From assembly GCF_024700885.2 (NCBI RefSeq), contig NZ_CP117016.1: 64,000 bases of DNA, one strand, 5' to 3'. The notes under the pieces were generated by a model. The model did not search any database and was not told where the DNA came from. It saw nothing but the letters and a program-made list of their open reading frames with translations. Below, piece by piece: positions 52,046-52,486 of this stretch; position 1 is the first letter of the stretch; the number at the start of each line of letters is the position of its first letter. This stretch comes from Escherichia coli (GTDB lineage: Bacteria; Pseudomonadota; Gammaproteobacteria; Enterobacterales; Enterobacteriaceae). A program made the position numbers and the translations under genes.

Positions 52046-52486
52046 ATTTAGCTTAATTTTTAAAACCCTCTCAACATACAGTCGTTGATGAGAAAAGGTT
52101 ATTGCGGAAATTAACTTCCGAATATAAGGTGACATTATGGTAATTGAATATTGGCTCTCCAATAATGCAGGAGGAAGTGTTACAGCTAACGGAATAGCAG
52201 GCAAGGTAACAATTCGGCAATTGGCTATTTTTAAGAATTATATTAAGTGTCATTCAATATGGTTTTTAGGAGTTTCTTTAGGTTGACAATATTTAATATA
52301 GTGTCTCCACATGCGATATTTCTTAAATAATGTTTTATTATTACCACTTTTAATTCAGGGATAATGTGAGGTTATTACCCTCAAATAATATGAGATAAAT
52401 AGTGCTGCAACATTGCATTTTTGCCCCGATTTATCCATGATCGAATTGTGACATTTGTCATACAACGAATAGGTTTTGTACTTACT

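Follow-up and report, generated by a model that had tools for sequence, protein, structure and literature searches.

A strongly conserved Rcs-box-like element upstream of wza, very probably an operator of the colanic-acid promoter of Escherichia coli

The window, i.e. the whole stretch of 64,000 nucleotides of Escherichia coli DNA that was analysed, comprises the divergent genes wza and yegH. The intergenic region between both genes (51829-52487) has a length of 659 bp, which replaces the value of about 590 bp given in the first-pass annotation, and a G+C content of 34%. The complete wza-yegH region is 100% identical in strain MLI114. Within this region, a 16-mer had been flagged as a candidate RcsAB box. 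Its presence at 52232-52247 on the plus strand was confirmed exactly, and with wza itself lying on the minus strand it reads CTTAATATAATTCTTA in the sense of wza. The 16-mer is located 404-419 nt from the ATG of wza on the upstream side, and an identical copy is present in K-12 MG1655 at 2,137,647-2,137,662. Together with its A-tract, the flagged motif is unique within the 64-kb window at 0-1 mismatches. The features of the locus are as follows:

50689-51828, minus strand: wza, identified as an ORF and by RefSeq annotation (MLI114, K-12), first gene of the colanic-acid operon wza-wzb-wzc...
52007-52045, minus strand: JUMPstart with ops (Rfam RF01707), the ops element GGCGGTAGCGTG, where RfaH is loaded, at 52007-52018
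52137-52286, plus strand: 49-aa ORF, annotated by PGAP as "hypothetical protein" WP_162829205.1, spanning the flagged site
52176-52204, minus strand: predicted core promoter with the -35 TTGCCT (52199-52204), TG (52183-52184) and the -10 AACACT (52176-52181)
52228-52231: A-tract on the promoter side of the flagged box, invariant in the cross-species alignment
52232-52245, minus strand: core 14-mer of the flagged element ("box 2"), TAATATAATTCTTA in the sense of wza and TAAGAATTATATTA on the plus strand
52232-52247, plus strand, antisense to wza: flagged 16-mer taagaattatattaag, located by exact sequence match
52267-52280, minus strand: box 1, TAAAGAAACTCCTA, with 10 of 14 consensus positions and the right half TCCTA followed by AAAA
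52283-52288, minus strand: the invariant TGTCAA (conservation 0.98), 16 bp upstream of the right half of box 1
52312-52325, minus strand: site B, TAAGAAATATCGCA, with 9 of 14 consensus positions and 6 of 6 capital (invariant) positions
52488: start of yegH, divergent from wza, from RefSeq annotation

TGTCAA and box 1 possibly form one composite site. In K-12 MG1655 (NC_000913.3), box 1 corresponds to 2,137,682-2,137,695, site B to 2,137,727-2,137,740 and the predicted transcription start to about 2,137,581-2,137,584. On the other side of the region, a strongly conserved block at 52409-52460 adjoins the start of yegH and contains the palindrome TGACAAATGTCA at 52449-52460; presumably this block is a regulatory site for yegH, which belongs to the TerC family. 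Between yegH and asmA (about 54145-54763, plus strand), a gene for a RelE/ParE-family toxin and one for a helix-turn-helix protein are located according to the RefSeq annotation of MLI114.

The published consensus of the RcsAB box is TAAGAATATTCCTA (PMC4325325). In a gapless comparison, the flagged site showed 10 of 14 identities to this consensus in either orientation, the equal scores resulting from its nearly palindromic sequence, and 5 of 6 capital positions. The invariant position that is missed is G4 in the sense of wza and C11 on the plus strand. A search of the 64 kb at up to 3 mismatches to the consensus revealed 4 sites compared to 4.15 expected, none of them in the wza-yegH region. 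Windows with at least 10 of 14 identities were observed three times in the intergenic region, compared to 1.5 expected (P = 0.21) on the basis of 2000 dinucleotide shuffles of this 34% G+C sequence. The consensus resemblance of the flagged site alone is at chance level and carries no weight by itself. Of the resemblance to an RcsAB box proposed in the first-pass annotation, the part that stands is the existence of a conserved element resembling an Rcs box within the control region of colanic acid, while the match to the consensus does not exceed chance. Published boxes are likewise loose, as can be seen for hmsC with 9 of 14 positions of the RcsAB consensus.

The four top consensus windows fall on three conserved blocks, namely 52232-52245 (on both strands), 52267-52280 and 52312-52325. 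Box 1 reaches the same consensus score as the flagged site (10 of 14), and the best fit to the invariant RcsAB positions in the region is that of site B with all six. For the RcsB homodimer, the box is described as TN(G/A)GAN4TC(T/C)NA (PMC7913699; PMC5829831). The right half of the flagged site, TCTTA (equivalent to TAAGA), is a perfect RcsB-type half-site, as is the right half of box 1, TCCTA, while the left half of the flagged site, TAATA, deviates from the half-site by a change of G to T. Since the strict pattern showed zero matches in the wza-yegH intergenic region, the flagged site was rejected as a strict RcsB homodimer box. Elsewhere in the 64 kb, the sole exact match to TNRGAN4TCYNA is TAGGAGATATCCGA at 14902-14915 (plus strand), which is at chance level (2.2 expected). 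All weak matches (2-3 mismatches) to either the RcsAB consensus or the flagged motif lie in a very AT-rich stretch at about 17900-23800 and are compositional; this stretch may represent the O-antigen cluster.

The conservation of the region was determined with wza loci taken from 80 species-level Enterobacteriaceae genomes, the upstream regions of which were anchored on ops; 76 of them were aligned. As a measure, the mean majority-base frequency over the 76-species alignment was used. It amounted to 0.98 for TGTCAA, 0.97 for TTGCCT, 0.96 for TG together with AACACT, 0.92 for JUMPstart, 0.92 for the A-tract after the flagged box, 0.91-0.92 for the flagged 14-mer, 0.85 for box 1 and 0.76 for site B, compared to 0.47-0.54 for the spacers between the blocks and 0.49 for the leader at 52050-52165. 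Across the 76 species, the flagged 14-mer belongs to the blocks with the highest conservation in the intergenic region, level with JUMPstart. For comparison, the N-terminal 200 residues of YegH showed only 48-58% identity in the same genera.

Each 5-nt half of the flagged 14-mer is 87-97% invariant across the 76 species, and the only variable positions are 52239 and 52237, both in the central 4 nt. Position 52239 is A in Escherichia and T in 73 of the 76 species, and position 52237 is A in 43 and T in 31 species. The central bases read TATAAT in Escherichia and TATTAA elsewhere. Such a limitation of the variation to the central N4 would be expected for a dimer site of 5-4-5 layout. The sequence of site B drifts between genera (TAGGAAATATCGCA, TCGGATATTTCGCA, TGAGGATATTCCTA, TGAGATATATCTGT), keeping TNRGA-N4-TC..A. 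Compared to site B and to published Rcs boxes, the flagged block is stricter, showing near-total invariance including its flanks CTT and AAAA.

Within E. coli, 4808 genomes contained a 36-mer centred on the flagged block in intact form (28-mer word), and in 4317 genomes it was identical. The corresponding 36-mer of site B was found in 3943 genomes and a control 36-mer from the leader of this strain in 3 genomes. About 595 of 5426 complete E. coli genomes gave no match to the wza-yegH intergenic region; roughly 11% of the complete genomes would accordingly lack the colanic-acid promoter region or carry a replaced one. In NZ_CP032073.1 (strain CT29), an IS1 is inserted in the intergenic region, which could change the capsule regulation of this strain. 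Kosakonia oryziphila contains a second wza paralogue (L073, in the same genome as L064), in front of which ops is present and the module of Rcs boxes and promoter is absent. This argues that the module is specific to the colanic-acid-type locus.

For the promoter scan, every position in every species was scored for a -35, a 16-18 nt spacer, a -10 and an extended -10 TG. TTGCCT-17-(TG)-AACACT was the sole sigma-70-like site that was conserved across species, being present in 74 of 76, compared to at most 10 for any other position. The -10 hexamer is AACACT in E. coli and AACAAT in most genera, and the segment 52176-52204 agrees with the sigma-70 pattern of -35 and -10 at 17 +/- 1 bp with an optional TG. 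Although the first-pass annotation had found no confident -10/-35 beside the flagged site, a conserved pair could be assigned, 31 bp downstream of the box. From this promoter, transcription would start at about 52166-52169 with a leader of about 340 nt. The flagged site, previously assigned to the wza leader, therefore probably lies upstream of the promoter and outside the transcribed leader, some 70 bp upstream of the predicted start. Since the box is located 30 or 31 bp upstream of the predicted -35, its centre would be at about -70, and the centres of box 1 and site B would be at about -105 and -150. Stout (1996) reportedly mapped the start site of wza in K-12.

Two other candidates were rejected. 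The only match of a simple consensus scan, TGGAGA-16-CATAAT (52134-52161), is not a conserved promoter, as it showed 10-30% identity and was found in 1 species in the scan; it could be an Escherichia-specific start, which would place the flagged box at about -112. TATATT (52295-52300) as a -10 is unconserved and would place site B over the -35 region.

The distances between the conserved blocks were determined as follows:

GTCAA to the right half of box 1: 16 bp in 64 of 64 species
box 1 to the flagged box: 34 or 35 bp in 63 of 64 species
flagged box to CTTGCC (-35): 30 or 31 bp in 64 of 64 species
CTTGCC to CTGYAACA (-35 to -10): 20 bp in 63 of 64 species
CTGYAACA (-10) to ops: 152-190 bp, variable

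In addition, a distance of 38 +/- 1 bp between site B and GTCAA was found in 55 of 74 species. This pattern points to a fixed DNA-protein assembly, followed by a transcribed leader of free length. The JUMPstart in this leader was identified by Rfam RF01707 with 57.3 bits (gathering threshold 35; E = 2.3e-12), and the flagged site lies outside of it. On the predicted transcript, JUMPstart would comprise about +125 to +163. The ops element is found 190 nt before wza, as in strain CFT073, for which an RfaH ChIP signal was described at the corresponding ops (PMC9765446). In the RfaH/H-NS datasets of CFT073, the transcription start site of wza is entered as NA.

A further observation concerns rcsA. 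The exact 12-mer TTAATATAATTC is common to the flagged wza element and the upstream region of rcsA in K-12. It is the longest word common to the wza and rcsA regions, and words of at least 12 nt were obtained in 3% of shuffles (P about 0.03 for the whole-region comparison). According to PMC11879457, RcsA/RcsB bind two boxes in the E. coli rcsA promoter, of which box1 overlaps TGAATTGCCATTAATATA; the exact 14 nt and the limits of box1 we infer from a figure legend of that paper.

The weakest explanations for the conserved block do not involve a regulatory site at all. A functionless chance resemblance in AT-rich DNA would agree with a motif match at chance level at 34% G+C, but is effectively refuted by the conservation of 0.92 in 76 species and by the intact block in 4808 E. 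coli genomes, while spacers and leader vary freely. The conservation could also reflect the 49-aa ORF on the plus strand (52137-52286), which carries the annotation "hypothetical protein" in numerous RefSeq genomes of E. coli. However, an ORF in the same frame is absent in 41 of 73 species, its length ranges from 0 to 77 aa, conservation is restricted to the DNA blocks while the sequence between them varies and contains 1-nt indels, and the ORF is unannotated in K-12. The ORF was rejected as the cause of the conservation, and the PGAP annotation over the wza control region is probably spurious and unconserved outside Escherichia. An assignment of the block to yegH instead of wza is very improbable. 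Synteny does not distinguish between both genes, as wza is accompanied by a divergent yegH in 71 of 75 species, but the block lies at a distance of 241 bp from the start of yegH, is held at 30/31 bp from the promoter on the wza side and at 34/35 bp from box 1, and is retained at one locus (L082) with no yegH homologue detected within 3 kb; moreover, a separate conserved block (52409-52458) adjoins yegH. Comparably little speaks for the blocks being RNA-level elements in a longer leader (about 445 nt) that would begin at an upstream promoter with TGTCAAYAT (52280-52288) as extended -10 and site B at about -45. The invariance of TGTCAA and the fixed distance of 38 +/- 1 bp to site B would fit this arrangement, the geometry of which is close to RcsB-only promoters with the box just upstream of the -35. 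However, the alignment revealed no conserved RNA structure (RNAalifold -0.01 kcal/mol, z = -0.14 compared to column shuffles), the E. coli fragment showed an MFE z-score of +0.8, and the Rfam search found JUMPstart only. In the cross-species scan, the TGTCAA position had no promoter score, while 52176-52204 scored in 74 of 76 species. In addition, TGTCAA keeps a constant distance of 16 bp from box 1, like a component of that site.

The main alternative, itself rather unlikely, is that the flagged block serves another factor or architecture, such as a different regulator, H-NS nucleation or bending, or a contact of the RNA polymerase alpha subunit, and that the real RcsAB box is site B and/or box 1. 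Site B comprises all six invariant positions and drifts between genera like known Rcs boxes, whereas the flagged block is far more invariant, flanks and A-tract included, so that a different or additional protein could read it. Its consensus match is at chance level and misses G4/C11, the strict RcsB pattern is absent from the region, and H-NS covers the wza promoter in CFT073. On the other hand, the way in which the block varies agrees with a 5-4-5 dimer site carrying TCTTA as a perfect half-site, and the 12-mer is identical to the box1 region of rcsA. Furthermore, the A-tract at about -58 to -63 is located upstream of the usual position of an UP element, no IHF-like consensus was seen on inspection of the block, and H-NS sites are normally not conserved base for base.

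Altogether, judged from its conservation and fixed position, the flagged element very probably functions as an upstream operator for the colanic-acid promoter. With less certainty, it is most likely a site for RcsA/RcsB, namely the promoter-proximal one of three rigidly spaced Rcs-type boxes upstream of the wza promoter; this reading is favoured over the alternatives. In this upstream activating region, site B (about -150), box 1 (about -105) and the flagged box (about -70) would all be occupied by RcsB~P bound together with RcsA. RcsB would read the perfect TNRGA/TCYNA half-site, which is TCTTA in the flagged box, and RcsA the divergent partner half, which is TAATA. The RcsA-RcsB complex could then help the RNA polymerase to use a weak, AT-rich promoter that is silenced by H-NS. 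Transcription would start near 52168 and proceed through the leader of about 340 nt, where JUMPstart/ops would load RfaH and thereby lead to read-through of the long operon.

Since TTAATATAATTC is also found at box1 of rcsA, it is a possible determinant marking RcsA-dependent promoters. An extended form of this proposal, in which the colanic-acid promoter depends on a rigid array of the three boxes and TGTCAA (38, 16, 34/35 and 30/31 bp), conserved in the Enterobacteriaceae, instead of one RcsAB box alone, and in which the invariant TAATAT(W)A(W)TTCTTAAAA acts as the RcsA-specific determinant, is put forward tentatively. If true, this determinant would separate RcsA-dependent from RcsB-only promoters.

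Induction of the colanic-acid capsule serves as the classic read-out of the Rcs envelope-stress system, and fusions to wza/cps are in wide use as reporters. The activation of wza by RcsA and RcsB via an upstream operator has been known since 1996-2000. An Rcs-like box at this position is therefore expected in a textbook system and is not new in itself; novelty is possible only for the three-box rigid array and the motif common to wza and rcsA. Wehland and Bernhard (2000) are said to have defined the 14-bp RcsAB box as the operator that the RcsA-RcsB heterodimer binds in front of rcsA and the capsule operons. The abstract of that work reportedly states that binding sites are present in the wza promoter and that mutation of conserved nucleotides of the box abolishes capsule induction. 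A full-text literature search for box sequences printed verbatim gave no relevant match, and the reviews gave no coordinates for wza. The published wza RcsAB box could be the flagged site and just as possibly site B, and box 1 is a slightly less likely candidate. Should it correspond to box 1 or site B, the flagged element would represent an operator not yet described. Beyond the known operator, the analysis adds a base-resolution map of selection in the 659-bp control region over 76 species, a conserved core promoter that is missed by simple consensus scans, evidence for three boxes with fixed spacing, a sequence link between wza and rcsA that could define what RcsA itself recognises, and evidence against a widely propagated PGAP "hypothetical protein", which is probably spurious.

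Compared to known systems, the JUMPstart/ops-RfaH leader (RF01707) shares the control region with the flagged site and is located downstream of the predicted start, but it is an element of its own, 187 bp downstream of that site. With the RcsB homodimer box, the flagged site shares the exact TCTTA half-site and an equal N4 spacing. The TAATA half does not fit, which is consistent with wza also needing RcsA.

With the RcsAB box TaAGaatatTCctA of Wehland and Bernhard, the flagged site has in common the regulon, the promoter region, the upstream position, 10 of 14 positions, 5 of the 6 invariant ones, a single perfect half-site and, as it appears, the 14-bp pseudo-palindromic 5-4-5 layout. It differs in missing one invariant position, the similarity alone is non-significant, and the flagged site is one of three candidates.

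For the K2 cps locus of K. pneumoniae, the RcsAB box of galF was reported as TAAGATTATTCTCA at -119 to -107 from a start determined by 5'-RACE (PMC3569464, PMC3438125). In the sense of wza, the flagged 14-mer shows 11 of 14 identities to this box, and both are located at upstream activator positions of capsule promoters. Differences are found in the half-sites, since galF comprises two perfect TNRGA half-sites compared to one at the flagged site, and in the distance from the start, which is about -113 for galF and would be about -70 for the flagged box. RcsB-only sites lie just upstream of the -35, while the E. coli rcsA boxes are located about 170 bp upstream of the start (PMC11879457). Judged by these published examples (-107 to -170), far-upstream positions would be normal for RcsAB boxes.

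A Wza homologue search aimed at amsG of E. amylovora, for which an RcsAB site is known from biochemical work, returned only colanic-type Wza of at least 85% identity, and the RcsA homologues among the 120 matches listed were all from E. coli. An exact scan of metagenome contigs for the 14-mer of the Salmonella rcsA box gave chance matches, none of the 120 listed adjoining rcsA.

For the rcsA promoter, the upstream region in K-12 has the sequence ...TGAATTGCCATTAATATAATTCCGTAACG...(33 bp start to start)...TAAGGATTATCCGAAAAA. Relative to the gene, its two box types stand in the opposite order compared to wza, two boxes are present compared to three at wza, where site B is extra, and the rcsA boxes are located at about -170 and -137 compared to the predicted -70, -105 and -150. 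The second rcsA box shows 10 of 14 identities to site B of wza, and its right half with the A-tract, TCCGAAAAA, resembles box 1 (TCCTAAAAA) and the flagged box (TCTTAAAAA). wza is activated by Rcs and silenced by H-NS (PMC6242692, PMC9765446), and far-upstream boxes and H-NS silencing are found at rcsA as well. In both promoters, a box of the 'TAATATAATTC' type is paired with one of the 'TAAG...TC' type, at 33 bp in rcsA and at 34/35 bp in wza, and the 12-mer TTAATATAATTC of the flagged element recurs at the box1 region of rcsA, where PMC11879457 reports binding of RcsA/RcsB.
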